DNA of 64,000 nucleotides from an uncultured Alphaproteobacteria bacterium (lineage in GTDB: Bacteria; Pseudomonadota; Alphaproteobacteria; Methylaequorales; Methylaequoraceae): the NCBI GenBank assembly GCA_902550225.1, contig CACCYL010000002.1:84089-148088 (forward strand), written 5' to 3'. The position numbers and the translations under genes are program-made. Shown here one piece after another: positions 3,613 to 50,316 of this stretch; positions within the stretch are counted from its first letter, which is position 1, and each line of letters begins with the position of its first letter. The notes beneath the pieces were generated by a model. That model worked only from the letters and a program-made list of their open reading frames with translations, did not search any database and was not told where the DNA came from.

Positions 3613-4408
3613 AATAGTCGATTCACACTGTCATTTAAATTTTGACGATTTTAAAGATGATCTTGATAATGTGATTACAAATGCGAAAGATAAAGATGTA
3701 GATTACATGTTAAGTATATCAATTAATTTAGAAAAGTTTGAGGAGATTTACAATTTAACTCAAAAATATAAAAATATTTGGTGTACTACTGGAGTTCATC
3801 CAAATAATGTTCCAAAGAAGTTAGATATTAAAAATATTATAAAACTCAAATCACAATTGTTGAAAAATTTACTGAAAAAGAAAGTTGTGGGTATTGGTGA
3901 AACCGGACTCGATTATTATAGAAGTTTAGAAAACAAGCAAAATCAAATAGATTTTTTTGAAACACACATGCAAGTCTCTGGAGAAACAAACTCTCCAACT
4001 GTAATTCATACTAGAAATGCAGATGAAGATACAATTTTCTTTTTAGATCAATTTGTAAAGAAATATAATTCTAAAGGCCTAATACATTGTTTTTCATCTG
4101 GAAAATCTCTTGCTAATTGTGCTTTAGATAACGGTTTTTACATATCATTTTCTGGGGTTATTACCTATGATAAGGCTGATGAAATTAGAAAAATTGTTAA
4201 GTATGTCCCCTTAAATAAAATTCTTGTAGAAACAGATTCACCATACCTTGCTCCTGTACCTAAAAGAGGCAAAAGAAATGAGCCTGCATTCACGAAATAT
4301 ACATTAGAGCAAATAGCAAAAATTAAGAAAATTGATATTGAGGAGGTCGCAAACGAAACTACAAAGAATTTTTTTAATTTATTTTCAAAGGCCAAAGATG
4401 CAACTTAA
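3602..4408 (+). CDS. tatD: TatD family metal-dependent DNase/hydrolase
   Basis: N-terminal DSHCHL motif and conserved His/Asp/Glu metal ligands, directly downstream of metG. Confidence 0.88.
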   Translation: MKNKIVDSHCHLNFDDFKDDLDNVITNAKDKDVDYMLSISINLEKFEEIYNLTQKYKNIWCTTGVHPNNVPKKLDIKNIIKLKSQLLKNLLKKKVVGIGETGLDYYRSLENKQNQIDFFETHMQVSGETNSPTVIHTRNADEDTIFFLDQFVKKYNSKGLIHCFSSGKSLANCALDNGFYISFSGVITYDKADEIRKIVKYVPLNKILVETDSPYLAPVPKRGKRNEPAFTKYTLEQIAKIKKIDIEEVANETTKNFFNLFSKAKDAT

Positions 4409-5174
4409 AATAACTGTTTTGGGTTGTGGAAGTTCTTCTGGTGTACCAGCAATTGGAAACAATTGGGGTGATTGTAACCCAGAGAATCCCAAGAACAGAA
4501 GACTAAGATCGTCGATTTTAATTGAATCTCCTAGCGTTTCAATATTAGTTGATGCTACTCCAGATTTGAGACAACAACTTTTGAATGCAAATGTTAAAAA
4601 TTTGGACGCAGTCTTAATTACTCATTGTCACGCAGACCATATCAATGGCATTGATGACTTTAGATTTTTAAACGTCTTAATGAAAAAGGATTTAAATTTG
4701 TATGCTACCAAAGAAAATATAGACGAAATTAGAAGAAGATTTGCATATGTTTTTGATAAACTATCTCCCAAGGCCAAAGGTTTTTACTATAAACCTTGTT
4801 TAATTCCAAATGAAATAAATGGATTATTTAAAGTTAAAAATTTAGATATTTTGAGTTTTCAGCAAGATCATGGCTTTGGATTATCAACGGGATTTAGGAT
4901 AAACAATTTTGCTTATTGTTCAGACGTTTTTGATATAAGTCCAGAGATTTTAAAAAAACTCGAAAATTTGGATTTATGGATTGTAGATTGTTTAAGATTT
5001 GAACCTCATAAATCTCATGCACATTACGATAAAGTTATGAAATGGATAGAAATTATTAAACCAAAAAAAACTATTCTAACTCACATGAACTACGAAGTTG
5101 ATTACGACCATATCAACTCGCTTTGTCCTGATAATTGTCAAGCTGCATACGATGGACTAAGGTTAATTGTCTAA
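4398..5174 (+). CDS. MBL-fold metallo-hydrolase, PhnP/PqqB-like
   Basis: HCHADH motif. The Gly-rich N-terminus (LGCGSSSGVP...RRLRSSILIES) is shared by PqqB/PhnP-type MBL proteins. The start is taken at the ATG at 4398 (MQLKITVLG). Confidence 0.75.
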   Translation: MQLKITVLGCGSSSGVPAIGNNWGDCNPENPKNRRLRSSILIESPSVSILVDATPDLRQQLLNANVKNLDAVLITHCHADHINGIDDFRFLNVLMKKDLNLYATKENIDEIRRRFAYVFDKLSPKAKGFYYKPCLIPNEINGLFKVKNLDILSFQQDHGFGLSTGFRINNFAYCSDVFDISPEILKKLENLDLWIVDCLRFEPHKSHAHYDKVMKWIEIIKPKKTILTHMNYEVDYDHINSLCPDNCQAAYDGLRLIV

Positions 5175-18627: not shown

Positions 18628-19188
18628 TTGACTCGAACTTACATGGAAAACTCGCTCAAAAACATTATTAGAAACTATCAAAATTCTTTTAAAAGGAAAG
18701 TCTACACAAATGAAAATAACGATGTCGACTTATTAATGAACGTTTTTGGTATAACTCCCGATTTAAAGCGAGAAAATCGACAATATTGGGGACGAGAACT
18801 GGGAATGTGCTGGCAACTTTTAGTCATAGAATTATTCAGGAACACAAGAGATGATTTTGGTGCTGCCATAAAAATCGGTTCAGACGAACCCTGTGACCTA
18901 ACTGCCGGAACCTATGCGATTGACACAAAATATAGAATAGGGTCAGGAGACTCTGGTACGTTGAAAAAATTTAAATCTTACGGTCCTAAATTAAAAGAAA
19001 TGGGTTACTCACCAATATTTTTAATAGTTAGAGAAGATAACTTACCTGCGGCGATTACTGCTTGTCGAGTTGGTGGTTGGAGGGTATTAACCGGGAAAGA
19101 TACTTTTAAATTTATCAGAGAATTTACCAATTTTGATCTGGAGCAGTTTCTGCTCGACAATCGTGAAAATTTCAACGTTGAACGTTAA
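18628..19188 (+). CDS. type II restriction endonuclease candidate (PD-(D/E)xK fold)
   Basis: PCD-x9-DTK motif. The gene is convergent with the methyltransferase and overlaps it by 4 nt tail to tail. GC content is elevated. Confidence 0.55.
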   Translation: MTRTYMENSLKNIIRNYQNSFKRKVYTNENNDVDLLMNVFGITPDLKRENRQYWGRELGMCWQLLVIELFRNTRDDFGAAIKIGSDEPCDLTAGTYAIDTKYRIGSGDSGTLKKFKSYGPKLKEMGYSPIFLIVREDNLPAAITACRVGGWRVLTGKDTFKFIREFTNFDLEQFLLDNRENFNVER

Positions 19189-20078
19189 AAAAGAGAATAA
19201 TTGAGTCTTTCCCTGATTATCTCTACATACTTCTTTTCAATCTCAATTCCAAGATATCCTCTACCTAAATGTTTCGCAGCGAGCAGAGTTGTTCCAGAAC
19301 CAGCAAAAGGATCTATTACCACATTTTGAGTTCCTTCTGGAACAAGTATGCTTACTAATTTTTCCATTAATGATAGAGGTTTTACAGTACAATGCACATT
19401 GAACTCTTCCTTTTTGTCTCTTTGAATATTCTCTAAAATATTTGACTGAAATCCTCCATTCTTTAAAGTTGTATTGAAAACTCCAACTCCGTACTTCATT
19501 AATGTTTGTGAATAATTTTGTTCTAAAGGTTTTTGAACCAAGACAATGCCCTCCCATTCATTCCGAAAACAACTATGCCAACCCTGCCACCGATAATGTT
19601 CCTGGTAACCTTTACGTTTTAACTGAGATGCAGCGTTGTAACCCTTTGGGATGCCACTCGAACGTCGATACACAAGTATATCGCGAGCATAAAAACCTGC
19701 CTTTTCGAGGGCAACTTGGACATGCGCCAGTGTCCGGGTACTGTTAAATACAGCAACGGGACTTCCCGGTTTCAAGATTCTATAAAGTTCTTCTGACCAT
19801 TTCAGACACCACTCCTCATAATCAAGTATGTTTGACCGATTTTTATCATACCATCGCTTATTCCTTACCCCACCAGCAAGACCACTTCCGTAAGGTATGT
19901 TTTTCACTAATGTGTTACTTTTTTTGGACCTACTAATCCTTCGTTCAACTTCCTCAGTATCCCAATTTTTTCCGATAAATTCATAGTTATATGGAGGATC
20001 AGTGATACAAGCAGACACCGTATCAGGTTCAAATTGCTTCATGATCTTGATGCAATCTCCATTAAATATCTTATCCAA
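19185..20078 (-). CDS. DNA methyltransferase, beta-class N6A/N4C (DPPY ... FAGSGTT)
   Basis: Motif IV DPPY is N-terminal and motif I DPFAGSGTT is C-terminal. This is the ParB-less beta-class arrangement, as in M.RsrI and M.PvuII. GC content is markedly higher than in the surroundings. Confidence 0.85.
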   Translation of the reverse strand: MDKIFNGDCIKIMKQFEPDTVSACITDPPYNYEFIGKNWDTEEVERRISRSKKSNTLVKNIPYGSGLAGGVRNKRWYDKNRSNILDYEEWCLKWSEELYRILKPGSPVAVFNSTRTLAHVQVALEKAGFYARDILVYRRSSGIPKGYNAASQLKRKGYQEHYRWQGWHSCFRNEWEGIVLVQKPLEQNYSQTLMKYGVGVFNTTLKNGGFQSNILENIQRDKKEEFNVHCTVKPLSLMEKLVSILVPEGTQNVVIDPFAGSGTTLLAAKHLGRGYLGIEIEKKYVEIIRERLNYSLF

Positions 20079-20750: not shown

Positions 20751-20840
20751 GGAGAGTTGGCAGAGTGGTCGAATGCATCGGTCTTGAAAACCGACAAGGA
20801 TGCAAGTCCTTCTAGGGTTCGAATCCCTAACTCTCCGCCA
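20751..20840 (+). tRNA. tRNA-Ser (anticodon UGA)
   Basis: Cloverleaf folded by hand: acceptor GGAGAGT/ACTCTCC, anticodon stem TCGGT/ACCGA with loop CTTGAAA, a long variable arm, T arm TAGGG-TTCGAAT-CCCTA, discriminator G and an encoded CCA. Confidence 0.9.
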
Positions 20841-21172
20841 TTTTAGAGGTCATTAGTCGACAATATAGTCGACAACATTAAAAACCCTGTCCTCTGTAAC
20901 GCAGACTCACATTGACTTATAGAAGTTTTATTAGTTGAATAAACTAGTCTTGAAAACCGGCAAAGATGCAAGTCTTTCCAGGGTTCGAATCCCTGACTCT
21001 CCGCCACTTTTGGGGTCATTAGTCGACAACATAGTCGACAACACTAAAAACTCTATCCTCTGAAAGACAGACTCACATTGATTTGTAGAAAATATATTAG
21101 TTGAATAATCTGGTCTTGAAAACCGGCAAGGATGCAAGTCCTTCCAGGGTTCGAATCCCTGTCTCTCCGCCA
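20781..21172 (+). repeat. 166-bp tandem repeat (about 2.4 units). Each unit begins at the tRNA-Ser anticodon loop and contains the tRNA 3' half plus a GTCATTAGTCGACAAYATAGTCGACAACA spacer
   Basis: The period is exactly 166 bp (20781, 20947, 21113). The tRNA 3' halves recur at 20947-21006 and 21113-21172. Confidence 0.85.
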
Positions 21173-23703: not shown

Positions 23704-23951
23704 TGGTTTTTAACGGATTTATATAACATTTGGGTTAAAGATATTTCTTATCTCTTTCTCTCCTTCTCTATCTGAAATCCCTGAATTCTCATATCTTGAG
23801 CTTCTTTATTTAATAATTTTCCCTCCGAGATTACTCCCCTTAATTTTCAACTAAAAGATTAACCAAATGTGAATAACACCCTCAGAGTTGATTAAGAAAA
23901 AAATAATAATAAGGGTATAATTTTATTAACTTTTTATTTAAGGAGTAAACA

Positions 23952-24029
23952 ATGGCTTGGACAAAACCAATGATTTCTGAAATCTCTGTTGGTCTTGAAA
24001 TCAATTCTTACGCTTGCGCTGAGAAGTAA
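23952..24029 (+). CDS. PqqA-like 25-aa peptide (MAWTKPMISEISVGLEINSYACAEK), copy 1
   Basis: AAGGAG RBS 6 nt upstream. The peptide aligns to alphaproteobacterial PqqA (W..P.[IV]SEI.VG[ML]E[VI].SY..AE), including the E-x3-Y crosslink pair. It is followed by an intrinsic terminator. Confidence 0.6.
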   Translation: MAWTKPMISEISVGLEINSYACAEK

Positions 24030-24058
24030 TTTCGATCTATAAAGATGAAATTTTAAAA

Positions 24059-24087
24059 GCCTGGCTAAGAAGTCAGGTTTTTTTTTT
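24059..24087 (+). terminator. rho-independent terminator after PqqA-like copy 1
   Basis: Stem CCTGGCT/AGTCAGG (7 bp with one G-U wobble), loop AAGA, then T9. Confidence 0.75.
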
Positions 24088-24290
24088 CTTAAATTAAACC
24101 TTTCCTTACCCTTTTATCTTTAAGCCTTGTCTTTTTGCCCTCTAGAGCTGATTTCATATCTACGTATGCCCTATAATAACTATTTATTGTTATCTTTATG
24201 ATTTCTATATATACCTAAAATGATAAATAGTTTTTTATAATAAATTTCTTATTTAATTTACTCTTATTTTTGCAAATCAAACACTAAATT

Positions 24291-26322: not shown

Positions 26323-27357
26323 TTACACACGCCAAACTGTAACACCACCTTGTCTATCCAATCCAGCAAGTGCTTTATCATCTTGACGCCAATATAATTT
26401 TGAAACAGAATCACTTACACTAGTTTCACTTAATCCACTTTCTTCATTTTCAGATTTTAAGTCCCAAAGTACTACAACACCATCCCTTGATCCTGAAGCT
26501 AAATTCATACCACGATTTGAAAAAGCTAGTGATGTAATTGGTTTAGTGTGAAGTTTTAACGATAAAGGAGATGTACCCTCAGGCCCATTGCCTTTGAAAC
26601 TCCAAACTGTTACCTCTTCACTTCCCCCTGTGGCCAAGTAGCTTCCAGTTTCGTCAAAAGACAAAGCTGAGGGTTTTAGTGGATATCCAGACATCATTGA
26701 ATCTTGCTCTGTTGATCTGCGCCAAAAATGAATTGTATTATCTTGGCTTCCACATACGACTATGTCGCTGTTTGGGCTTAATACCATTGAAACTAAAGAC
26801 CCTTTCCATTCTAATTTCTGCTTTATTTTTCCTGAAATACCATCAAAAAAGGAAACACGCCCATAGCATGTTGTAGCTAGTTCTTTTTCGATGGACCAAG
26901 CTAAATTACTTACAGTACTATTATGACTGTCAGATTGCCACATTTCATTACCCTCTTTGGTGTATACATAAATGGTTCGAGAGCAAGAAAACGCCAGCAT
27001 TTCTCCATCTTGTGACCACGATAAATTTTCTATCCAACCATCACCCAAATCAATGACTTTTTCCTTTTTTTTTTGTTGAGCATTCCAAATAATAACCTTT
27101 CCATCCTGACCTCCTGTTGCGAACCTATCAATTAATGGATGGATTGCTGTTGAAAGAATACCACCTTCATGAACTTGTCCTTGAGACCATTTCATTTTAC
27201 CAGATGTACCATCAAAGACATATATCCCTCCAGCAGCATCACAAATTATGAGAGCCTCACCATTAAAGTTCCAACCCCCAGAAATAGCGTAATCATTTAC
27301 ATAGGCTTTCCAACCACTTCTGAGAATCTTTTGGGGTTGTGTTTCCATTATACTCAT
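26323..27357 (-). CDS. WD40-repeat beta-propeller protein
   Basis: Seven WD-like blades ending in W/D dipeptides (WNAQ, WRRS, WDLK, WRV). There is a 4-nt ATGA overlap with the upstream COG0523 gene. Confidence 0.75.
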   Translation of the reverse strand: MSIMETQPQKILRSGWKAYVNDYAISGGWNFNGEALIICDAAGGIYVFDGTSGKMKWSQGQVHEGGILSTAIHPLIDRFATGGQDGKVIIWNAQQKKKEKVIDLGDGWIENLSWSQDGEMLAFSCSRTIYVYTKEGNEMWQSDSHNSTVSNLAWSIEKELATTCYGRVSFFDGISGKIKQKLEWKGSLVSMVLSPNSDIVVCGSQDNTIHFWRRSTEQDSMMSGYPLKPSALSFDETGSYLATGGSEEVTVWSFKGNGPEGTSPLSLKLHTKPITSLAFSNRGMNLASGSRDGVVVLWDLKSENEESGLSETSVSDSVSKLYWRQDDKALAGLDRQGGVTVWRV

Positions 27358-28706
27358 ACAAGACAGTCCTCAAAATCCCTTCGCATTTCCTTTTCATCAA
27401 GGTTGCGTCCAATAAATACAAGCTGATTTCGTCGAGGTAAACTTCCCCAAGGGCGATCAGGTTTTCCACTAAAAATCATATGAACACCTTGAAAAACGAA
27501 TCTATTTGACTCTCCAGCAATACTTAGAAAACCTTTCATACGAAAAATATCTACTCCTTTGTCTCTAAGAAGTTTAGAAATCCAAGCTTGTAGTTTTTGT
27601 TCATCCAAATCACCGTCTTTTTCAATTGAAAAAGAACCAACTTCGTCATCATGTTCATGTTGTGCTACCCATGTTCTTTCTACTTCGACTGCAACTTCAT
27701 CGTTATTATTTACTTCAATTAACTTCATATTGAATTCTTCTGCTGTATGTTGAGCAAAAAGACCTAATTTTGTATCTTTCTCAATTTCAATATAAAATTC
27801 TTTTGGACCAGACGACTCAAGGTTTAAGTTGACATGTTTTCCTTTAGGAATTATTTCTTCTGGTTTGATTGATTTGGCGTCTTCAGCGTAAAGGCGAACG
27901 CAGCGCTCAGCAGAATTTCTCAAACTTACATCATCTGCATTCTGATCAGGCACAACAACAAGAGACATAGAAGGGTCAGGACCCTCAGACATAATGATTT
28001 TATATTTACCACATTTAGTTGGATAAATTCCCGTCCATTCAAATGGATATTCTGGTTCTAGAAAAGTAGGACGGCGTGTAAGAGCCTGGTCTAAATTAAA
28101 GGCACTTTTATCAAGGACAGAGTTAATTGGAACATTGGCCATTTCACTCCTAATGAATTTTGCCATTTTATTCATTTCCCGAAGACGGGCTTCTAAATTA
28201 TCAAGTTCTGAGTCTTTGACAAGATCTGTTTTGTTAAGAACAATAACGTCTGCAAATGCAATTTGTTCCGTACTTTCGTTACTTCTTCCAAGTTGTTGAT
28301 TTATATGAAATGTATCAACAAGAGTTATAATTCCATCAAGAGAAAACTCTGAACTTATCTCATCATCCATAAAAAAAGTTTGAGCCACTGGACCTGGATC
28401 TGCAAGACCAGTAGTCTCTACAACAACGTAATCAAATTTATCACGCCTTTTCATGAGGTTCCCAAGTACTCTAATTAAATCACCACGAACTGTACAACAA
28501 ATACAACCATTGGCCATCTCAAAGATTTCTTCCTCTGCATTTATTACAAGAGCTTGGTCAATACCAACCTCTCCAAATTCATTTTCAATCACAGCTATTC
28601 GTTTTCCGTGTTGCTCGCTTAAGATACGATTTAGTAAAGTGGTTTTACCTGAACCAAGAAAGCCAGTTAGAATGGTTACAGGAACCTTTTTAGATGAACT
28701 ATCCAT
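27354..28706 (-). CDS. COG0523 (CobW/ZigA/YjiA) metallochaperone GTPase, long form with an extended linker
   Basis: P-loop GFLGSGKTT, the family-defining metal-binding CxCC (GCICCT), and a CobW_C-like C-terminus. There is a Zur box upstream of the operon. Confidence 0.85.
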   Translation of the reverse strand: MDSSSKKVPVTILTGFLGSGKTTLLNRILSEQHGKRIAVIENEFGEVGIDQALVINAEEEIFEMANGCICCTVRGDLIRVLGNLMKRRDKFDYVVVETTGLADPGPVAQTFFMDDEISSEFSLDGIITLVDTFHINQQLGRSNESTEQIAFADVIVLNKTDLVKDSELDNLEARLREMNKMAKFIRSEMANVPINSVLDKSAFNLDQALTRRPTFLEPEYPFEWTGIYPTKCGKYKIIMSEGPDPSMSLVVVPDQNADDVSLRNSAERCVRLYAEDAKSIKPEEIIPKGKHVNLNLESSGPKEFYIEIEKDTKLGLFAQHTAEEFNMKLIEVNNNDEVAVEVERTWVAQHEHDDEVGSFSIEKDGDLDEQKLQAWISKLLRDKGVDIFRMKGFLSIAGESNRFVFQGVHMIFSGKPDRPWGSLPRRNQLVFIGRNLDEKEMRRDFEDCLV

Positions 28707-28887
28707 TTTCTTCTCCATTTAAAATTGTCATTCTTTTTCCTAGATCTCTGCGAAGTTTTGTAATTGCATATGGTTTCATATTTTTCCACTTTTTGCATTC
28801 CTCACGTGTTCTGCCACAACCAATACACCATGAATTTTTCCCTATAAATTTGCATATGTCAATACATGGACTTTTATTACGTTTCAT
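28699..28887 (-). CDS. DUF1289-family small Cys-rich protein (YdhL-like)
   Basis: SPCIDIC-x7-CIGCGRT-x-EE-x2-W matches the DUF1289 pattern. It is the first gene of the Zur-box operon. Confidence 0.65.
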   Translation of the reverse strand: MKRNKSPCIDICKFIGKNSWCIGCGRTREECKKWKNMKPYAITKLRRDLGKRMTILNGEENG

Positions 28888-28918
28888 ATGTAAAGTTCTA
28901 AATTTTATTTTTTATTAT

Positions 28919-28939
28919 TGTAATGTTATAACATAACAC
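28919..28939. promoter_or_regulatory. candidate Zur box (TGTAATGTTATAACATAACAC) in the divergent intergenic region
   Basis: Perfect palindrome TGTTATAACA within GTAATGTTATAACATAAC. Compare the proteobacterial Zur consensus GAAATGTTATAWTATAACATTTC. Confidence 0.55.
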
Positions 28940-28998
28940 TTTATAGTATAGTTTTATTAAATAAAAAAACATTATGTATTCAAAAACTTTATGTAAAC

Positions 28999-29355
28999 AT
29001 GGATTTAATTATTGAAAATCTTTTAGGCCAAGCAGGCGGAAATTTCAAAGGACTTATATTTGGTTTTGTTCACGTTGCGATAATGATTGTAGGTTATTAC
29101 ACTGGTTTTAGCATAAATAAATTTTTAAAGATTCTTTCCAATGGCTATGTTGCTGGGATCTTTGGCGTAGTTTTGTCTCATATCATTGCAGACATAATTG
29201 CTTGCTATTTAGATCCAGACCTTAGAAAAATGATTTTTGGAGTAGTTATTGGTGGTATAATTCCTCTTTTTTTCATACCAATATTAGAAAGATTTGTTGT
29301 AAAAAGTAAACAAAGTTTTTTAGATGAAACAAAAAAAGAGTTAAATAGATCCTGA
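28999..29355 (+). CDS. small membrane protein (3-4 TM), unknown function, downstream of a Zur box
   Basis: Hydrophobic segments, with Gly-rich GVVIGGIIP. Confidence 0.5.
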   Translation: MDLIIENLLGQAGGNFKGLIFGFVHVAIMIVGYYTGFSINKFLKILSNGYVAGIFGVVLSHIIADIIACYLDPDLRKMIFGVVIGGIIPLFFIPILERFVVKSKQSFLDETKKELNRS

Positions 29356-29484
29356 CTAAAGATCTATTATTAAAAAATTTTTTGTTGTTCTTTTCCTTGT
29401 CATTCCTCCAATATTTAGAAGCCACTGACTCTGACTATTTTGAGGCTTGATTTGATAATTTTTTACCAAAATAAATTTATTATT

Positions 29485-29506
29485 GAAATGTTATATTATA
29501 ACACTT
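29485..29506. promoter_or_regulatory. candidate Zur box (GAAATGTTATATTATAACACTT)
   Basis: It matches the Zur consensus GAAATGTTATAATATAACATTTC at 19 of 22 positions, and lies about 50 nt upstream of the second COG0523 gene. Confidence 0.65.
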
Positions 29507-29555
29507 AATATAAAATCCTTACTTTGATTTAGTTAAATTTTGTGGAGAATTTATA

Positions 29556-30770
29556 ATGAAAGTTTTAGATAAAAAACTTCCAGTCACATTATTGTCTGGA
29601 TTTCTTGGTGCTGGAAAAACAACCCTTTTAAATCACATTCTTAATAATCGACAAGGTCTAAAGGTTGCAGTTATTGTGAACGATATGAGTGAAGTAAATA
29701 TTGATGCAAATCTTGTTGAGCGTGGAGGTGGTAACTTATCTCAAACTGAAGAGAAACTTGTAGAAATGAGCAATGGATGTATTTGCTGTACTTTACGTGA
29801 AGATCTTTTAATTCAAGTTAGAGAGTTAGCAAATGAAAATAAATTTGATTACCTTCTTATAGAAAGTACTGGTATCTCTGAACCTTTGCCAGTAGCAACT
29901 ACTTTTGACTTTCGTGATGAGGATGGAGCTAGTTTATCTGACGTAGCAAAACTTGATACAATGGTGACTGTTGTGGATGCTGCAAATCTTATAAAAAATT
30001 ACAGCTCTACTGATTTTTTAAAAGATAAAGGAGAAAGTCTAGAAGATGATGAACGAACACTTGTTGATCTTCTTGTCGAACAGATTGAGTTTGCCAATGT
30101 TATTCTATTGAATAAAATTGATTTAATATCCTCTGAAGAATTAAAAACTGTTAATGCAATTATAAGTGGACTTAACACTGAGGCAAAGGTCTTTGAATGC
30201 TCTCATTCGACCGTGAATCTCAAAGAAGTTGTTGGTACTGGATTGTTTGATCTTAAAAAAGCTTACACTCATCCGTTATGGGCAAAAGAACTTTATAATT
30301 TTAAAGATCATCTTCCTGAAACAGAAGAGTATGGTATCACAAGTTTCGTATATTTAGCCCGCGAACCATTTGATCCATCAAAAATCTATAATTTCTTCAA
30401 TCAAGAATGGCCTGGTGTAATGAGATCAAAAGGCTTTTTTTGGATTTCGAGTCGACCTGAATTTATTGGTGAGGTTTCTCAGGCTGGTGCGTTTGTTCGT
30501 CATCAGGGAATTGGAAGATGGTGGACAACTGTACCGAAAGATCGTTGGCCAGAAGGACCTAATTTTGATGCTTTGATCGATAAATATTGGAATAAAGATT
30601 ATGGTGACCGTCGACAAGAAATAGTTTTTATAGGTTTAAAGTCTGAAATGAGTGAAAAGAACATTCGAGAGAGGCTAGACGCTTGTCTGATTAAGAACTA
30701 TCTTGATGATCCTAGTGCATATCATAAAGCTCTAGATCCCTTTCCAGCATGGTTTAAAAAAGTAGCTTAA
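29556..30770 (+). CDS. COG0523 (CobW/YjiA/ZigA) metallochaperone GTPase, standard length
   Basis: P-loop GFLGAGKTT, CxCC motif GCICCT and a CobW_C domain. Confidence 0.88.
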
Positions 30771-41460: not shown

Positions 41461-41731
41461 AATATTTATTTAATGTATAAATTAATATTAGCTAGATGTT
41501 TATAAATATAAATTATTTTTCTACGTAATTATCGTATGATTTTGTATTCAATGTGAATAAAAAATAACAGAAGATAATCTACATTTAAAATATTTATTAA
41601 TAATTGCTTACATAGTTTAGTAATAACATTTCTTTTCAAATACATTAACAAGATATGAATATTAGAATCAGTAAACGTTAATTTAGATTTAATATAATGA
41701 ACTTTAATATTAACTTTTTAAAGGATAAATA

Positions 41732-41809
41732 ATGGCTTGGACAAAACCTATGATTTCTGAAATCTCTGTAGGTCTTGAAATCAATTCTTACGCTTGCGCT
41801 GAGAAGTAG
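41732..41809 (+). CDS. PqqA-like 25-aa peptide, copy 2 (identical peptide)
   Basis: AAGGA RBS. The only differences from copy 1 are two synonymous substitutions (CCA/CCT, GTT/GTA) and a TAA/TAG stop. Confidence 0.6.
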   Translation: MAWTKPMISEISVGLEINSYACAEK

Positions 41810-41839
41810 TTTCAAACTATAGATTAATTTCTTTAAAAA

Positions 41840-41867
41840 GCCTGGCTAAGCAGTCAGGTTTTTTTTT
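41840..41867. terminator. rho-independent terminator after PqqA-like copy 2; probably bidirectional, since it also abuts the minus-strand gene at 41873
   Basis: Stem CCTGGCT/AGTCAGG, loop AAGC, then T10. Confidence 0.75.
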
Positions 41868-41872
41868 GTCTT

Positions 41873-42280
41873 TTAAAAATTGCAAATGAATTTAATTTTC
41901 TCGAAGTTTTCACTCATTAATTTCGGATGAATCCATTCTGAATCATCTGATTCAGTGTTTAAATTTTTTTTATATTCAAATGTTCTTCCTCTACCCATAT
42001 TAGTCTTGTAATCAATTATAGTAATAACTTTAAATCTTTTATTTTTACAATCATACTTAGTATAAAACTTTGTACTTAGTTTTTCTTTTTTTTGTGCGAT
42101 TTTGTAATCAAACATACTCCAGATGTAAATAATATCATCGATTTTTTTGATTGATTCCATTTCAAAATATTCTGTAAAAGTTTTATGCGCACGGAATACT
42201 TTCCATTTTCCGTAACAACAGGAAAACGAAAAAAAATAAAGAAATAAAAAAATAAATTTATTTTTAAGAAAAATTTGCAT
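41873..42280 (-). CDS. secreted hypothetical protein
   Basis: Signal peptide MQIFLKNKFIFLFLYFFSFSCCYG. Confidence 0.45.
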   Translation of the reverse strand: MQIFLKNKFIFLFLYFFSFSCCYGKWKVFRAHKTFTEYFEMESIKKIDDIIYIWSMFDYKIAQKKEKLSTKFYTKYDCKNKRFKVITIIDYKTNMGRGRTFEYKKNLNTESDDSEWIHPKLMSENFEKIKFICNF

Positions 42281-42377: not shown

Positions 42378-42998
42378 TCAAATAACATTATTGAAACTTA
42401 ATAATCGAAATTGTCCACCTTTGTGTTTATTATCCTTTTTGGAAACCATTTCAAGAACACTATAGCTTTGATATGTAACTTCCAATCCAATTGCAAATTC
42501 AGGTTTAATTTGTAAAGCATGAGATAATATTGCCCTTATTGTACCTGCGTGTGTTATGATCAAAATACTCTGCCCAGCTTTTACTTTTAATTTTTTGAGC
42601 CAAATCTCTACTCTTTTACTCTGTTCTAGAAAACTTTCTCCATTTGGCGGTGAAAATTCAGGAGAAATAAATGAAAAATTATGTTTGTCTTCATTTTTAT
42701 TTATAAGTTTCCAAATTTCAGAAATTTTTTTTCCTGACCAATCTCCGAAGCTTTGTTCAACCAGATTGTTTTCTGTAATGATTTTTGAATACTGTTTATA
42801 TCTTGATAAAGCTTCTGCTGTTTGAATTGTTCGTTTTAAAGGACTCACATACCAATCACAATTATCTGGTAAACAAGTTGCCAATTTTTTAATTTTATTA
42901 TTTTTTATAATTGCATCTGGATTATGTTCAGAAAAAAAACCCGTAATTTGTTTTACAGGTGCATGCCGTATTAAAAATAATTTCGACGGTTTAATCAA
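42378..42998 (-). CDS. cobC: alpha-ribazole phosphatase (histidine phosphatase family)
   Basis: RHG-type motif (LIRHAP) and a catalytic His (ITHAGT). It is operonic with cobS and cobT. Confidence 0.7.
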   Translation of the reverse strand: MIKPSKLFLIRHAPVKQITGFFSEHNPDAIIKNNKIKKLATCLPDNCDWYVSPLKRTIQTAEALSRYKQYSKIITENNLVEQSFGDWSGKKISEIWKLINKNEDKHNFSFISPEFSPPNGESFLEQSKRVEIWLKKLKVKAGQSILIITHAGTIRAILSHALQIKPEFAIGLEVTYQSYSVLEMVSKKDNKHKGGQFRLLSFNNVI

Positions 42999-43780
42999 TT
43001 TACAACCAGAATCATTATAATATTTCCAAATAAAAACATTATATCTGTTAAGAAAGCGATTGCTCCTAATATGTCTCCGTTAATACCTCCTATGGCCTTT
43101 TTCGATTTTTTTCCAATTAAAAGTATTGTTAAGGTCATTAAGATTATGCCGAATAATATTCCATAGATATCTAACACAAACAATGTAGGTAATATCCAAG
43201 TTAAAGTAGCTATAAATAAACACTTATTTGAAATTTTTCCAACTATACTCGCTGTTTTTGCAAACTCTGAATTATTGAATAAGTTTCTTGCTATCATAAT
43301 AGAGAGTTTGCCGGTAGCAAATCCAATGGAAAAAATAGCAACTAATGGATACCCTGACTCGAATAAAGCTAATATTATTCCTAGTTTAAGCAAAATACCT
43401 AATACTAATGACATTACTCCATAGGTTCCAAGGCGACTATCATGAATAATTTTATCAATATTTCTAGGAGAGCCTCCTGCACCGAGGCCGTCTGCAGTAT
43501 CCGCTAATCCATCTTCATGAAAAGCGCCAGTAAGGAGAACACTTAATGTGATAGCTATAACACAAGATAAATAAACAGGAAGTCCCACTTGAATTAGTAT
43601 ATCCCCTGCACCACCAGATAAAATTCCTACTAAAAAACCAACTGATGGAAAAGACCAACTAGCTCTTGTTAAATCTGGTGCTTTTTTTGAGAAATAGGAC
43701 CATTTTACCGGTATTCTAGTAAAGAACATAAGTGTTGCAAAAAAATCCATTACATATTTATTTTTAAGAAGTAAATGCAT
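42995..43780 (-). CDS. cobS: adenosylcobinamide-GDP ribazoletransferase (cobalamin synthase)
   Basis: CobS-family N-terminus (FFATLMFFTRIPV) and polytopic membrane topology. Confidence 0.8.
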   Translation of the reverse strand: MHLLLKNKYVMDFFATLMFFTRIPVKWSYFSKKAPDLTRASWSFPSVGFLVGILSGGAGDILIQVGLPVYLSCVIAITLSVLLTGAFHEDGLADTADGLGAGGSPRNIDKIIHDSRLGTYGVMSLVLGILLKLGIILALFESGYPLVAIFSIGFATGKLSIMIARNLFNNSEFAKTASIVGKISNKCLFIATLTWILPTLFVLDIYGILFGIILMTLTILLIGKKSKKAIGGINGDILGAIAFLTDIMFLFGNIIMILVVN

Positions 43781-43782
43781 AA

Positions 43783-44805
43783 TTAAATTTTTTTACTTAT
43801 CCCTGCTTCTGAAAACGTCGACATTTTGTTGTGAGTGGTCAAAGCTGCTCTTATTATCAAACTTGCTACTACTGCTCCGCTTCCCTCACCAAGTCTCATG
43901 TTTAAGTTAAGTATAGGCTTTTTTTTAAGATGAGAAATTACTCCTGAATGACCTGGTTCAGAAGATTGGTGAGAAATTAAACAATGATCCAATATATTCT
44001 TTTTAAAAAGAGTTAGAGTAGCAGCAGATACAGTTGTAATAAAACCATCCAATAAAACAGGTATACCTTTGACCCTTGCTGCGATTACTGATCCTGCAAT
44101 TGCTGCCATTTCTCTTCCACCAAATGCCTCAAAGATTTTACCAACAGTTTTAAAATTCTTACCATGTAACTTCAATCCACTCTTAATAATAGAAATTTTA
44201 TGTTTAAGTTTTTGTTTAGAAATGCCCGTACCTAAACCTGTCCATTTTTCAACAGATTCATTAAAAAGTGCGCATGAAATAGCAGTTGCTGCTGAGGTAT
44301 TAGATATACCCATTTCTCCCAATATTAACAAATCACAATCTTTTGAAACAGAATCAAATCCTAATTGCATTGCTTCAATTATCTCGCTTTGTTCCATTGC
44401 TTTTTCTTTTGAAAAATCCTTAGTAGGTGTTTCAAGCTTTATTGGAATAACTGATAATTTTACTTTAGCTAAATTACATAGTTGGTTAATTGCAGCTCCT
44501 CCATTTTTAAAGTTAGCAACCATTTGCTTTGTTACTTCTGCAGGATAAGCAGACACTTTTTTATTTGCTACACCATGATTAGCAGCATAAATGATGCATT
44601 GAAAACTATCCATTTTAGGTTTTTTTCTTTTTTGCCAACCAGCCATCCAAATAGCATAATCTTCTAATCGACCTAAACTCCCAATTGGTTTTGTAAGTTT
44701 ATTTTGATGTTTTCTAGCCAAATTAGCATAATATTCATGGAACGATTTAAGTGGGACTTTGCCATTATTATTTAGCAAAATTTTAATAATATTATCATTA
44801 GACAT
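43783..44805 (-). CDS. cobT: nicotinate-nucleotide--dimethylbenzimidazole phosphoribosyltransferase
   Basis: CobT signature (GEMGISNTSAATAI, GEGSGA). Confidence 0.85.
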   Translation of the reverse strand: MSNDNIIKILLNNNGKVPLKSFHEYYANLARKHQNKLTKPIGSLGRLEDYAIWMAGWQKRKKPKMDSFQCIIYAANHGVANKKVSAYPAEVTKQMVANFKNGGAAINQLCNLAKVKLSVIPIKLETPTKDFSKEKAMEQSEIIEAMQLGFDSVSKDCDLLILGEMGISNTSAATAISCALFNESVEKWTGLGTGISKQKLKHKISIIKSGLKLHGKNFKTVGKIFEAFGGREMAAIAGSVIAARVKGIPVLLDGFITTVSAATLTLFKKNILDHCLISHQSSEPGHSGVISHLKKKPILNLNMRLGEGSGAVVASLIIRAALTTHNKMSTFSEAGISKKI

Positions 44806-44975
44806 ATTTAAATATCAAATATACTCTTTAAAATTAAGCTATATTACTTTTGTAATTGATAGTCTAGTTTTTAATAAAAGCTGTAATAAATTAGTCCAAT
44901 ATTGGTATTCATAATTGAAAAGTATTAAAATTAACTTTTTAGTTTTTTAAATTAGTAAATATTAAAACCTTAATT

Positions 44976-46034
44976 TTGAGAGCAAAATTGCGAAGATTTT
45001 TATTTTATCCATTATTTATTATTTTTACTTATCTATTTTACGTTTATCCCTTTAGAACTCTTATTTCTATGATTACCGATGACGAAATCTTAAATTTCAA
45101 TTCGTTTGTTGTAAGTTTATTTTTTTCAGCGTTAATAATTTATAACTCAAAATTAAAAAATACTTTTTTATTTTCTAAATTGTTAATTTATGAAGGATTA
45201 GGAATTGGGTTCATAAGTTTTTGGATAGTTAATTTGGGATTATTTATTGACATTTTTAATATCATAGAATCTTACAACTTAGGTATAGTCTGCATTCTAA
45301 TTATATTGATTCTGACATTATTAAGTTTTTATAATGGTAGTAAAATTAACATTAAAAAATTAAATGTTTATTCTTCAAAATTAAAAAAACCTTTAAAATT
45401 AATTTTTCTCAGTGATATTCATTTAGGAACAAATACTATTGAGCACTTAGAGAAAATTAATAAAAAAATAATTAAGCTTGAATTTGATTTTATATTGGTG
45501 GGAGGAGATTTAATTGATTCGAGTTCATTTGAATTAAAAGATTTAAAGATTTTAAAAAATTTAAAAAAACCAATTTATTTTATAAGTGGTAATCATGAGT
45601 ATTACATCAAAAACTATCAAGAGAAACTAGGTAAGTTAAATGAATACAACATTAACTTTTTAGATAATAAATCAATAAAATATAAAAATATGAATATTAT
45701 TGGGGTTAGTGATAATCAAAGTACATTAAATCAAACTGAAACTGTTAATAAATTTTATAAGCCAAACTTATTTAATTTGGTAGTTGTGCATAAACCTACC
45801 TTATGGGAATTTATAAATAAACAGATAGATTTGACTTTATCAGGACATACACATAATGGACAAATAGTACCTTTTAACTTTTTAGTAAAACTGAGATTTA
45901 AAAATATTTATGGGTTATACGAAAAATTTCAGTCTAAACTTTATGTTTCGTGTGGCGTTGGTTGTTGGGGGCCAAGAATGAGGCTTGGAAGTACAAATGA
46001 AATTGTTTTACTATCAATTAGTAATCAAGCATAA
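44976..46034 (+). CDS. membrane-anchored metallophosphoesterase (calcineurin-like)
   Basis: LSDIHLG, GGDLID and GNHE motifs with an N-terminal TM region. The annotated start is TTG; an internal ATG start is possible. Confidence 0.7.
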   Translation: MRAKLRRFLFYPLFIIFTYLFYVYPFRTLISMITDDEILNFNSFVVSLFFSALIIYNSKLKNTFLFSKLLIYEGLGIGFISFWIVNLGLFIDIFNIIESYNLGIVCILIILILTLLSFYNGSKINIKKLNVYSSKLKKPLKLIFLSDIHLGTNTIEHLEKINKKIIKLEFDFILVGGDLIDSSSFELKDLKILKNLKKPIYFISGNHEYYIKNYQEKLGKLNEYNINFLDNKSIKYKNMNIIGVSDNQSTLNQTETVNKFYKPNLFNLVVVHKPTLWEFINKQIDLTLSGHTHNGQIVPFNFLVKLRFKNIYGLYEKFQSKLYVSCGVGCWGPRMRLGSTNEIVLLSISNQA

Positions 46035-46114
46035 CTAGATACCTTTCTATATTAAAACTTTGTCGACTAAATTTTAATAAATTAACTTTTTCTTATTTTT
46101 TAAAAGAAGACTAT

Positions 46115-46498
46115 TTAGTAAAAAATTAAGTCAGCTAAAAAAGCAAAGAAAAAACCTGTGATATAAACTACAAACGAAAAAGTCAATATAACGGAATTTG
46201 TTGACCTTAATTTCAAACATATTTTAGCTTCTGCTGGGTTTGTTGGACATGAAGCATTATTTCTTCTCCATGCCATATAACATGATAAAGCCAACATAAA
46301 ACCTGCTAATATAAAGACATATAATTTATATTTTGATAGAACAACAATCCACGGAAATATTGATACAATGCTAATTAAAGTTGTACCCAATCCAACAGTC
46401 ACAAGCAGAGCTGGTAAAGCACAACAAACTAGCGTACTTAAACTTGTAAATAAACTTAATATTGGTGCAAACAATTCTTTATAGAAATTATTTAACAT
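46115..46498 (-). CDS. MerT-like metal-transport inner membrane protein
   Basis: Three TM helices with a vicinal Cys pair in TM1 (LVCCALPALL) and a second Cys pair in the cytoplasmic loop (SCP...ICL), which is the MerT topology. Confidence 0.55.
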   Translation of the reverse strand: MLNNFYKELFAPILSLFTSLSTLVCCALPALLVTVGLGTTLISIVSIFPWIVVLSKYKLYVFILAGFMLALSCYMAWRRNNASCPTNPAEAKICLKLRSTNSVILTFSFVVYITGFFFAFLADLIFY

Positions 46499-46799
46499 TT
46501 TTTATTTCTCTGACGTCATAACCAGAATCCTTAATCATTTCAGTGATTTTTTCATAACTTAATTTTTGATTTTCTTTAAAATTAATAGTAATCAACATAT
46601 TTTGTAAATTTACTTTTATACCTGCAACTGATTTTTGTTTTGAAAATATTTTTTCAATTGAACGAGCACAAAAATCACACACAAGTCCATTAACGTATAC
46701 GTACAAAATATCACCATTGTATTGTTCATCCGATAGAATTTTACTGCTGTTAAACAATACAAATTGTAAAATAAACAAATAGATAATAATTTTTTTCAT
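46488..46799 (-). CDS. periplasmic heavy-metal-associated (HMA) domain protein, MerP/CopZ-like
   Basis: Signal peptide MKKIIIYLFILQFVLFNSS and the HMA motif GLVCDFC. The start is taken at the internal ATG at 46799. Confidence 0.6.
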   Translation of the reverse strand: MKKIIIYLFILQFVLFNSSKILSDEQYNGDILYVYVNGLVCDFCARSIEKIFSKQKSVAGIKVNLQNMLITINFKENQKLSYEKITEMIKDSGYDVREIKNVK

Positions 46800-46809
46800 T
46801 TTTGCTCCT

Positions 46810-47457
46810 CTAAAATCTTTTAATGAAGTTAAACATAAAGTCTTTGTAGTTATTAAGACCAAACTCTGCTAAATAATCTCCTTTAAAAACTCTCAACATT
46901 GGAGTAAATGTCAAGTTTTTACGACTTCCAGGCATATGATTGGCTTGAAGCATTATCCAAGTATGTAAATATCCATATTCAGCCAAATAAGGAGCCACTC
47001 CAATTCTAAATTGTTGTGAAAAAAATCTATCTATTGAAGATGCATAAGTAGCTTGATTCTGATAACTTGTAAAAAAACTTCTATCTTCCCAATCAAATAA
47101 AATGCCTGTGAAAAGGGATGGTTCAAATTTATTTTCAAAAGCTTCATAATTACTATTTGCTAAACCTATTCCGTTCTTTAAATAAAAATTTGTTTGCGAC
47201 TTAGGTTTATTTAGTCTTTTTATGAGATAATTTAATTGAAGTCCATGAAATTGCCATTCTTTTTCTCTCCAATATTCTGCTCTATAACCTATTGAATAAT
47301 CAATTGATGGACTATAATGCAAATGAAAACTATGTTTACTAAAATCATTTGCCTGCATTAATGTCCAGCCTCCAGGATATGAAATTGGTCTAGCATTAAT
47401 ATCTTTTATGACTATAAAAGTGCACAAAAGAACTATTTTGCATAAAAATATCTTCAT
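46810..47457 (-). CDS. secreted hypothetical protein, aromatic-rich (possible beta-barrel)
   Basis: Signal peptide MKIFLCKIVLLCTFIVIKDINA. Confidence 0.45.
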   Translation of the reverse strand: MKIFLCKIVLLCTFIVIKDINARPISYPGGWTLMQANDFSKHSFHLHYSPSIDYSIGYRAEYWREKEWQFHGLQLNYLIKRLNKPKSQTNFYLKNGIGLANSNYEAFENKFEPSLFTGILFDWEDRSFFTSYQNQATYASSIDRFFSQQFRIGVAPYLAEYGYLHTWIMLQANHMPGSRKNLTFTPMLRVFKGDYLAEFGLNNYKDFMFNFIKRF

Positions 47458-47520
47458 CTTTTCTCCTAATAATCAGAAATAAATTCAAGACAAACTTTGT
47501 CTCAAAACTTTGAAATAAAA

Positions 47521-47856
47521 TTAGGAAAAAAGTTTTGGCGGGGGTGGTCTTAGTAAAGGGTTTAGGGAATCAAATGTAAACGTTAAGTTATCAAAAAAAG
47601 AATTAGCGATTTGAGCATCTAAAATATAGTCAACTTGAAATGTATTTATTTGAGTATAATAACACTCACAATTAAAACATACGTCTTCAACATCATTTGA
47701 TTGAGAATGACATGATTTGTTAGAGTGAGCATTATTTGTTTCATTAAGTTGAGAATATTTTTTATCTAAACAATACGAAATAACTTTAGCTGAGATCGTC
47801 AAACTAGACAGACTAAATATTAAAACACTTAAAATAAAAAATTTTACGTGACTCAT
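47521..47856 (-). CDS. small secreted Cys/His-rich protein
   Basis: Signal peptide followed by CHSQSNDVEDVCFNCECYY and a PPPP tail. It is divergent from the Zur-box promoter. Confidence 0.45.
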   Translation of the reverse strand: MSHVKFFILSVLIFSLSSLTISAKVISYCLDKKYSQLNETNNAHSNKSCHSQSNDVEDVCFNCECYYTQINTFQVDYILDAQIANSFFDNLTFTFDSLNPLLRPPPPKLFS

Positions 47857-47909
47857 AATTACAAACTATTAAAAGTTTTAAAAAAATCAATGATTTTATT
47901 TGATTGGGG

Positions 47910-47941
47910 TTGACATAGAACAAAGTGTTATAATATAACAT
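47910..47941 (+). promoter_or_regulatory. sigma70-like promoter (TTGACA -35, TAATAT -10) overlapping a Zur box (GTGTTATAATATAACAT)
   Basis: TTGACA at 47910-47915, then a 15-nt spacer and TAATAT at 47931-47936, which lies inside the box. The palindrome TGTTATAATATAACA at 47927-47941 overlaps the -10 and sits 36 nt upstream of the TBDT start codon. Confidence 0.65.
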
Positions 47942-47976
47942 AAATTAATATCAACATCTTATTTAATGGAAAATCA

Positions 47977-49941
47977 ATGTATAAAATAGTTACCTTCGTC
48001 TTGACTGTATTACTTGTAGCTAATGTAAACGCTGAAAAGTTAGAATCTATATTTGTTGCACCTGATGTATTTATAACATCTAAAATTAAGCCGAGTACTG
48101 AATATGAAAGTGATAGGGGTAATATTTTATATGATTCTCATGAACTAGAAAAAAGCAGACAATACTCTATTGGTCAGATGCTCAAAGATTTACCAGGAAT
48201 TGCTTCACAAGGTCTTGGTAACGCTTCACGTCCAATAATCAGGGGTCTTGGTAATTCGCGAGTTAAAATTTTACAAAACAGTTCTTCACTCGGTGATGTT
48301 TCCGAATTTGGTGAGGATCATATTGTTGGATATGATCCATTATTAATTGATAAAATAGAAATTATTAAGGGGCCCGGTACGTTACTTTATGGAAACAATG
48401 GTTTTGCTGGAGTTGTAAATATTATAAACCCTTTAATTGCAGTAGATAAGCCTCTTTCTGACGAAAACGTCCAATTAGGTTTTGGATACAAGACCTCAGG
48501 TGGAGAGTTGGGAACAGCATTAAAACTTGGTAAATCTGTGGACAATTTTACTGTTAGAGGTTCTGGAAGTTTTGTAAGTGCAGGACCTTACGATTTAGCA
48601 AATGTTTCAACTAAGCAAGCAAATTCATCAAAGTTCATGACATCTGGTGGCGTTGGAATAACATACAATGATGGTCAGAACCATTTTGGAGTTTCTTTGG
48701 ACAAACTTGAAGCTGTATATCAAAATCCTGGTCCTGAAGGTGAAGAAAATATGACATCGCTTAATCCTACAAGAAATACAATAAATTTTGATTCTTCACT
48801 TGCATTAAATTATTTAATCTTTGAAAAGTTTAACCTAGAAGGCACTGTTTCTGAATATAATCATGCTGAAAGAACAGGCGATGGGAACAATCATAATATA
48901 ACATTTTTCAATGATATATATGAAATAAAAACATCACTGAATCACAAATCTCTATTCAATCAAAATGAAGAAGGATTAATAGGTTTTCATTTTATGAATA
49001 AAAATCAAGGTGCAACAGGAGCTGAGGAAGGTCATTTAACTCCAACGAAGACCAATAGTTTTGCTTTATTTGCTCTCGAAAAATTAAAATTTGATTTATT
49101 TGATTTAGATCTTGGTGGTCGAATTGAATCTGTAAATTTGAAAACAACACAGCATGAGCAAGGTTTTTTCCCTGCTGCATTTTCTTCCACTGTCAAAAGA
49201 GAAATCATTCCAAACAATAGTGTATTTTTAGGTTTTGATTTTACACAAAGAGCACCGAATGCTGTCGAACTATTCGCAGACGGTCCTCACCACGCTCTTG
49301 AAAATGTTGAGACAGGTAACGTGAACTTAGAAAAAGAGAGTTCTTACAATGTATCACTTGGATATAATTATGATGAAAATCTAAATAAATTAAAAATTGA
49401 AGCTTATTATAACTACATTAATGATTTTATTGCTGCAGATAGAAACGGTAATACTCAAAACGTTGAAGGTGAAGATTTTAATGTTGTTATTCACGATCAA
49501 TATAATGCATTATTTACTGGAGTAGAATTAACTGGTCAGTATGGCATAACGAAATTGGATGATTTTGATTTCCTTGCTAATTTTGTAGGGGAATTTTTGA
49601 AGGGTTACAGAACATCCAATGACAAGGCTATAACTAGAATTCCACAATCAAAAGTAAATGTTGGTTTACAACTCATTAATGAGGAATGGGATACTAATCT
49701 TAAATATTATCATTATTTTGATAAAGAATTCACAGGTCCCTTTTATACAAGAACAGGTGGTCACTCAAGATTAGATTTTGATCTCACAAAAGATTTCATG
49801 TACTCAGATTTATCTGGCCATGCAATGTTTAGTGTAACCAATCTTCTGAATACAGTTGGTCGTGATCATCTTGAGGCAAAAAAGGGCCAAGTTCAATTAC
49901 CCGGTAGGAGTTTTAATTTTAATTTAAAGCTATTCTATTAA
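47977..49941 (+). CDS. TonB-dependent outer-membrane receptor, candidate zinc (ZnuD-like) transporter
   Basis: Signal peptide, plug region, and a 22-strand barrel ending in aromatic residues (LKLFY). A Zur box lies in its promoter. Confidence 0.8.
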   Translation: MYKIVTFVLTVLLVANVNAEKLESIFVAPDVFITSKIKPSTEYESDRGNILYDSHELEKSRQYSIGQMLKDLPGIASQGLGNASRPIIRGLGNSRVKILQNSSSLGDVSEFGEDHIVGYDPLLIDKIEIIKGPGTLLYGNNGFAGVVNIINPLIAVDKPLSDENVQLGFGYKTSGGELGTALKLGKSVDNFTVRGSGSFVSAGPYDLANVSTKQANSSKFMTSGGVGITYNDGQNHFGVSLDKLEAVYQNPGPEGEENMTSLNPTRNTINFDSSLALNYLIFEKFNLEGTVSEYNHAERTGDGNNHNITFFNDIYEIKTSLNHKSLFNQNEEGLIGFHFMNKNQGATGAEEGHLTPTKTNSFALFALEKLKFDLFDLDLGGRIESVNLKTTQHEQGFFPAAFSSTVKREIIPNNSVFLGFDFTQRAPNAVELFADGPHHALENVETGNVNLEKESSYNVSLGYNYDENLNKLKIEAYYNYINDFIAADRNGNTQNVEGEDFNVVIHDQYNALFTGVELTGQYGITKLDDFDFLANFVGEFLKGYRTSNDKAITRIPQSKVNVGLQLINEEWDTNLKYYHYFDKEFTGPFYTRTGGHSRLDFDLTKDFMYSDLSGHAMFSVTNLLNTVGRDHLEAKKGQVQLPGRSFNFNLKLFY

Positions 49942-49947
49942 TAAAAT

Positions 49948-50313: not shown

Positions 50314-50316
50314 TTT

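Follow-up and report, generated by a model that had tools for sequence, protein, structure and literature searches.

Two stand-alone pqqA minigenes in an uncultured marine alphaproteobacterium, probably satellites of a distant pqqBCDE-xoxF operon

PqqA is the ribosomally made precursor of PQQ. It is bound by PqqD, cross-linked by PqqE between Glu16 and Tyr20, and then converted to the cofactor, so that one PqqA molecule is consumed for each PQQ made. The position of its gene upstream of pqqB is typical, but it is not required of a PqqA, since extra stand-alone copies are known. Small precursor genes scattered in a streamlined marine genome, away from a single modifying-enzyme locus, are also found in Prochlorococcus, where the procA genes of the prochlorosins have hypervariable cores and yield many products. 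The closest described systems are those of methylotrophs (Methylophilaceae, Methylovorus sp. MP688, and Methylorubrum extorquens AM1 with two extra homologues), in which dispersed pqqA genes accompany a single pqqBCDE. Methylophilaceae possess 3-12 pqqA copies for a single pqqBCDE (PMC4109929). In M. extorquens AM1, the extra pqqA homologues explain the PQQ production of a pqqA knockout, and the pqqA copies of Methylovorus MP688 respond to different stimuli (PMC6520949). Methylotrophs with multi-copy pqqA rely on highly expressed PQQ methanol dehydrogenases.

The stretch of DNA analysed here, 64 kb in length and termed "the window" as a whole, harbors two such stand-alone pqqA genes. As in the methylotrophs, they are dispersed and would be served by a single pqqBCDE. 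The stand-alone copies ("satellites") number at least two in the window and about two per operon copy among the matches listed, with at least three locus types. The present case differs in its host, a streamlined marine alphaproteobacterium and not a betaproteobacterial or Methylobacterium methylotroph. It differs also in that one peptide serves for all copies, though PqqB proteins of the clade are only ~78% identical, and in that the satellites share a common, dedicated motif in their promoter region. The likeness to the prochlorosin procA genes is limited to the scattering. Here the peptide is invariant with a single product, and the logic would therefore be one of dosage or regulation and not of diversity. 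That several pqqA genes can accompany one pqqBCDE is not new among methylotrophs, but the lineage has not previously been described for pqqA paralogues. No mention of pqqA, PQQ, or xoxF in SAR11, HIMB59, or AEGEAN-169 was found in the literature, and the main comparative-genomics paper on the clade (AEGEAN-169/HIMB59) mentions neither PQQ nor quinoproteins nor alcohol dehydrogenase.

The first of the two genes (copy 1, Table 1) encodes a 25-residue peptide and is a genuine PQQ precursor peptide gene, a bona fide member of the PqqA family. A first-pass annotation, made from the sequence, had proposed a PqqA-like peptide with its own RBS and terminator, aligning almost residue for residue with PqqA, and had suggested scoring it with the PqqA models. 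Reading of the sequence, a hairpin scan, and both models bear this out. The peptide scores 36.7 bits with TIGR02107 (cutoff 20, E 2.6e-9) and 30.8 bits with PF08042 (curated cutoff 21.1, E 2.9e-7), and shows 58-67% identity by tblastn to annotated PqqA on alphaproteobacterial plasmids. The stretch Glu16-Ile-Asn-Ser-Tyr20 is retained, its Glu-x3-Tyr pair aligning across annotated PqqA proteins, and the 25 residues fall within the size of ~20-40 expected for a PqqA with such a pair. The peptide thus has the same 25-residue size as canonical PqqA, the same W-x-K-P leader, and the same E-x3-Y pair. In contrast to canonical pqqA, the gene is monocistronic, with its own promoter motif, a strong terminator, and no pqqB at its 3' side. 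The pqqB-pqqC-pqqD-pqqE series is absent directly downstream of both pqqA copies of the window. A second copy was overlooked in the first-pass annotation, which listed copy 1 alone: a tblastn search against the window reveals an identical peptide 17.8 kb away (copy 2).

Table 1. Coordinates of the two pqqA satellites of the window, of their transcription signals, and of the XoxF-PQQ system in relatives.
Feature	Position	Strand	Basis or remark
pqqA satellite copy 1, 25 aa, stop TAA	23952-24029	+	translates to MAWTKPMISEISVGLEINSYACAEK
Satellite-specific upstream motif, copy 1: CTCAGAGTTGATTAAG, overlapping the -35-like TTAAGA	23881-23896	+	exact match in window
Promoter-like site, copy 1: TTAAGA, 18 nt, TATAAT	23892-23921	+	sigma-70 consensus scan, 10/12 matches
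Leader motif ATTAAC-TTTTT, copy 1	23925-23935	+	conserved among satellites
RBS AAGGAG, copy 1	23940-23945	+	read from sequence; 6 nt ahead of ATG
Intrinsic terminator, copy 1: GCCTGGCT / AGTCAGGT stem (GC-stem hairpin) and T-run	24055-24090	+	
pqqA satellite copy 2, identical 25-aa peptide, stop TAG	41732-41809	+	tblastn, 100% over 25 aa
Diverged upstream motif, copy 2: ATCAGTAAACGTTAAT	41667-41682	+	sequence and alignment with copy 1
Candidate TATAAT, copy 2	41693-41698	+	read from sequence; upstream region spans 41667-41726
Leader ATTAAC-TTTTT, copy 2	41709-41719	+	
RBS AAAGGAT, copy 2	41720-41726	+	
Intrinsic terminator, copy 2	41835-41871	+	13-pair stem and T-run; 0.0 expected by chance
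Complete XoxF-PQQ system in relatives	L132 2893-14617; L142 4812-17330; L164 3125-14951		

Each copy is embedded in what resembles a complete small transcription unit. The coding regions of copies 1 and 2 differ by two synonymous changes plus the stop codon, and their alignment reveals near-identical terminators and diverged upstream regions. In the terminator region of copy 1, 0.2 terminator-like sites are expected by chance. Its promoter-like site is a sigma-70-like candidate, and a TAnAAT element at the position of its TATAAT recurs in related satellite copies. The anatomy of the 3' side is well conserved: across 73 unique listed satellites, a 10-bp stem is 95-100% paired and followed by T9, with compensatory changes at four pairs. 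Operon-linked pqqA copies of relatives (see below) display a different hairpin, in which compensatory changes are likewise seen, and their T-tract ahead of pqqB is weaker.

Upstream, ATTAA[CT] is found 22-31 nt before the ATG in 68 of 74 unique listed satellites, the corresponding figures being 8% for 45-mers drawn at random from the window and 6 of 31 for operon copies. A longer and stricter motif, CTCAG[ATG][AGT]TT[TGA][AG]TTAAG (CTCAG..TT..TTAAG), has 37 occurrences in the 2.39 Mb of DNA examined (the window and loci L002-L131), and in all 37 cases the ATG of a satellite pqqA follows 64-71 nt downstream. It precedes none of the 39 operon-linked pqqA genes and has no other sites in the 2.39 Mb, including at xoxF; since it lies at no other gene, nothing points to a regulon beyond the satellites. 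Its form at copy 1, CTCAGAGTTGATTAAG, may thus act as a promoter or a regulator site. No known RNA family of Rfam matches the satellite module.

The window provides the two precursor genes and none of the enzymes. Using reference proteins, tblastn detects no homologue of PqqB, PqqC, PqqD, or PqqE in the 64 kb, in agreement with the first-pass report that pqqC, pqqD, and pqqE are missing from it, and no pqqBCDE in the 10-kb flanks of related loci L002-L011. C1-pathway or PQQ-dependent genes were not found inside the window either. An MBL-fold hydrolase gene (4332-5174) had been noted as PqqB/PhnP-like in a conserved metG-tatD context. The neighbours are as described, but the relation to PqqB does not hold: the protein scores 27.7 bits against the TIGR02108 equivalog cutoff of 245 and best matches generic MBL-fold models (NF038231, 239 bits, under its cutoff of 360). 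Lying so far under the PqqB cutoff, it is judged unrelated to PQQ.

The surroundings of the two copies differ. Copy 1 is kept at the same position between the SSF symporter gene and typA in L002-L005 and L061. Upstream of this region, ARAGORN calls two tRNA-Ser(tga) genes ~250 nt apart (20751-20840 and 21085-21172), only the first of which passes the Rfam gathering threshold; the second could be an incomplete or decayed duplicate, for instance an integration-site remnant. A DNA N6/N4 methyltransferase gene (19185-20078) is located just upstream of this pair. Two minus-strand genes, for a Zn-peptidase and an adhesin-E-like protein, flank copy 2, which lies just upstream of cobC-cobS-cobT. It shares its flank subfamily with L027, L041, L071, and L094. 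The adhesin-E-like gene (41873-42280) and copy 2, both present in the window, are both absent from L009 and L011, where the Zn-peptidase gene abuts cobC with a gap of ~170 nt (L009 7315-7483, L011 7319-7492). Copy 2 and this gene may have been gained or lost together. The region that follows (42378-50958) comprises cobC-cobS-cobT (B12 lower-ligand attachment), a metallophosphoesterase gene, a TonB-dependent receptor gene (47977-49941) adjoined by three small genes, and DUF1826. Between the two satellites, two CobW-family GTPase genes are found (26323-30770), one of which seems to be translationally coupled to the gene of a WD40 beta-propeller (26323-27357). Such content is unusual for a SAR11-like streamlined genome, and gene order at these regions differs among the close relatives L007, L009, L011, and L163.

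The distribution of the satellites was followed in two ways. Using the SSF symporter beside copy 1 as a handle, ten loci were retrieved from uncultured marine Alphaproteobacteria (GORG SAGs and MAGs). Those with 95-99% SSF identity carry pqqA at the same place; MED657, with 77% SSF identity, has two pqqA copies in a rearranged context, both with the substitution M7I; and loci with 84-89% and 62-63% SSF identity have no pqqA beside SSF. Satellites are absent at the corresponding sites in relatives L006, L009, and L011 and are therefore dispensable and variably present. They are thus conserved but variably present genes in a rearrangement-prone neighbourhood.

Furthermore, a codon-degenerate DNA pattern for the peptide core matched at least 120 marine metagenome contigs. 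Among the matches listed, 113 complete copies are found, 39 linked to the operon and 74 standing alone, a satellite-to-operon ratio of ~2:1. Flank sequences split the satellites into several subfamilies, copies 1 and 2 of the window belonging to different ones. A third large subfamily, absent from the window, is found in the context of mfd/TRCF, PPIase, DUF2784, and COQ7 (L084 8717-8794 and 11 other contigs, among the matches listed). This housekeeping context implies at least three satellite loci in some genomes. The satellite is probably a self-contained minigene of ~210 nt, of which genomes would carry three or more.

The peptide is under strong purifying selection. The 74 listed satellites comprise 54 unique DNA sequences, nearly all of which encode one peptide, though the search pattern fixed the core residues and core conservation in this metagenome set is therefore partly ascertainment. 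At the six codons outside the pattern, 25 synonymous and no non-synonymous changes are observed among the matches listed. In the SSF-derived loci, which are unbiased by the pattern, M7I is the sole peptide change. In the same clade, PqqB displays a median identity of 78%, and an adjacent unknown protein 69%. The two classes part at codon 10 among the matches listed, with GAG in every operon copy (39/39) and GAA in every satellite (74/74), a fixed split that identifies old, separately evolving paralogue lineages; the peptide is identical in both classes despite it. A degenerate pqqA, one of three options offered in the first-pass annotation, is rejected on the 25:0 ratio of synonymous to non-synonymous changes at unconstrained codons.

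The enzymes missing from the window are found in its relatives. A pqqA gene encoding the identical peptide lies directly upstream of a complete pqqBCDE on 39 listed metagenome contigs, and the operon is also present in at least seven GORG SAGs (CABYVV, CACALT, CACKEP, CACACI, CACJYG, CACHGK, and CACMIJ) and in the MAG PARR01. All four enzymes exceed their NCBIfam equivalog cutoffs: PqqB with 381 bits (cutoff 245), PqqC with 345 (240), PqqD with 70 (46), and PqqE with 571 (381). Upstream of the operon are encoded a PQQ_ABC_bind protein, a TIGR03866 beta-propeller, an ABC ATPase, and a PedC permease, all above cutoff. Downstream, in convergent orientation, are found a MoxJ-like SBP (above cutoff), a cytochrome c, and a PQQ dehydrogenase of the methanol/ethanol family, 607-610 residues long. 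This dehydrogenase scores 664.5 bits with TIGR03075 (cutoff 480) and contains the sequence DEWDYDGVNE, that is, a D-Y-D (D-x-D) motif. D-x-D has been used as a lanthanide signature (PMC11996626). Family score and D-x-D together assign the enzyme to the XoxF type, and it is probably lanthanide-dependent. SoxYZ and pterin/H4MPT-type genes lie beyond the XoxF-PQQ module.

The pqqA gene of this operon is easily missed. It is already called PqqA in MAG contig PARR01000022.1, but SAG and long-read gene calls omit the 78-nt gene before pqqB (L142 9858-9932; L143-L146; L164 8144-8218), and automated annotation therefore under-reports both pqqA and its copy number. A congener links the two kinds of loci on one record: the 1,236,195-bp ENA contig myrmidon_3__contig_3625_pilon possesses a region syntenic to the window at 145-166 kb, with SSF 90%, p130 95%, and CobW 94-96% identical to those of the window, together with pqqA-pqqBCDE-xoxF at 1,146-1,166 kb, in which pqqA encodes the identical peptide. 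No satellite is seen within the 41 kb of it that were viewed. pqqBCDE is present in every genome-scale sample of the clade examined, and the genome from which the window derives very likely has it as well.

These observations are best accommodated, with good confidence on our part, by functional satellites: extra pqqA copies of a genome in which pqqBCDE and XoxF are encoded elsewhere, raising the supply of precursor or regulating it differently. The window carries two minigenes that form monocistronic units, a promoter region, an RBS, and a rho-independent terminator being present at each. PqqB, PqqC, PqqD, and PqqE would be encoded at another chromosomal site, in an operon headed by a third pqqA. 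Beside it would lie the gene of a XoxF-type dehydrogenase, along with those of a cytochrome c and a MoxJ-like protein and the ABC/beta-propeller accessory genes. The satellites would be expressed, and their peptide, identical to the operon-linked one, would be processed to PQQ by PqqD and PqqE. Given that one PqqA is spent per PQQ, extra independently transcribed copies most likely raise the supply or regulate it separately from the operon, a role in dosage or differential regulation that would keep an abundant quinoprotein loaded with cofactor. The first-pass annotation had considered that a complete pqq operon in the genome would make this an ordinary pqqA; by that measure, the ORF is very probably an ordinary extra copy. 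Its framing as an orphan is not supported, given the identical peptide heading complete pqqBCDE operons in the relatives (39 listed contigs, at least seven SAGs, and one MAG), nor is its expectation that the lineage would not synthesize PQQ, given that the clade carries pqqBCDE beside a XoxF-type PQQ dehydrogenase. Of its three options, the favoured one is a precursor whose modifying genes lie at other sites of the genome, whereas strong purifying selection speaks against a degenerate gene.

Other readings have been considered. The genome might lack pqqBCDE altogether, the minigenes then being relics or serving a use that depends on other cells. Such a true orphan would agree with the lack of pqqBCDE in the window and in the 10-kb flanks of L002-L011, as well as with the variable presence of satellites among relatives. 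It is nevertheless very unlikely: the operon is found in every genome-scale look at the clade, the ~2:1 ratio of satellites to operon copies among the matches listed fits their co-residence, and the two copies of the window are intact and differ at synonymous sites only. Relics, moreover, would not be expected to show the 25:0 ratio and the promoter and terminator conserved across dozens of species-level variants among the matches listed, and we know of no use of a PqqA peptide without PqqD and PqqE.

The satellite promoter motif that is missing from the operon copy, together with the conserved leader and 3'UTR, raises another question, as satellite-specific flanks could mean separate regulation or a function at the RNA level. 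The ~210-nt transcript might serve chiefly as a regulatory small RNA, or the peptide might have a regulatory role or act as a chaperone decoy that titrates, for instance, PqqD, in place of feeding PQQ synthesis. Conservation, however, is at the amino-acid level with synonymous sites varying freely, and hence bears the signature of a translated product; the flanking UTRs diverge into subfamilies while the ORF does not, no Rfam family is matched, and the satellite peptide is identical to the operon-linked substrate. Such a dual or repurposed function is thus highly improbable. Maturases of the PqqD-like and SPASM kinds are widespread, and dispersed RiPP precursor genes occupy similar stand-alone positions, so that the peptide could in principle be the precursor of a different RiPP, made by another radical-SAM/SPASM maturase, and not of PQQ. 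This appears extremely improbable for a peptide that matches at every residue the one encoded just ahead of pqqB, with no other radical-SAM, SPASM, or PqqD-like gene near the satellites in the window and the loci examined. Functional satellites of a remote operon remain the reading that we retain.

The host had been taken for a SAR11-type genome. Its window has a GC content of 30% and a gene set including cobT/S/C, two cobW, a TonB-dependent receptor, KatG, and a molybdopterin oxidoreductase. Such a set is not that of a canonical Pelagibacter/SAR11 genome, and relatives probably group with HIMB59. Among PqqB genotypes, the most abundant carries the annotation "alpha proteobacterium MED-G10", and L023, a metagenome operon contig with the exact peptide of the window, encodes a PqqD identical to P0514, from a MAG named "alpha proteobacterium" at NCBI. 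MED-G10 was reported to cluster with HIMB59, the former SAR11 subclade V (bioRxiv 10.1101/134635), and the HIMB59 family has 30.7% GC and genomes of 1.47 Mb (PMC10734472). The host, a streamlined marine bacterium estimated at ~1.2-1.5 Mb and 30% GC, fits these values. It is probably of the HIMB59/AEGEAN-169 type, an assignment made through the one link between MED-G10 and HIMB59, as the SAGs related to the window do not appear among the genomes tabulated in PMC10734472.

The outcome is in part deflationary, since there is probably neither an orphan RiPP nor a PQQ-less use of PqqA here, just additional pqqA copies. It nonetheless indicates that annotations of streamlined marine genomes understate both the capacity for PQQ and the number of pqqA copies. 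The retention of three or more identical minigenes by purifying selection in a genome of ~1.2-1.5 Mb suggests a significant demand for PQQ, in keeping with high expression of XoxF. The marine xoxF5 genes with the highest expression have been traced to MAGs of an unplaced "Clade X", formerly Rickettsiales (ISME J 2025, PMC11996626), and a Rickettsiales label is also found on MAGs in the present set of relatives. The complete XoxF-PQQ module of HIMB59/AEGEAN-169-type genomes may connect the two, and the xoxF5 expressers of "Clade X" may be this very group. A stronger version, rather unlikely as it stands, is that the satellites form a separately regulated family that uncouples precursor supply from the operon, with at least three locus types per genome and a promoter motif of their own, in a host that is the "Clade X" of the top xoxF5 transcripts in the warm surface ocean. 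If it were true, the minigenes would be markers of, and a partial explanation for, a major and so far unrecognised lanthanide- and methanol-oxidising guild in a group often counted with SAR11.
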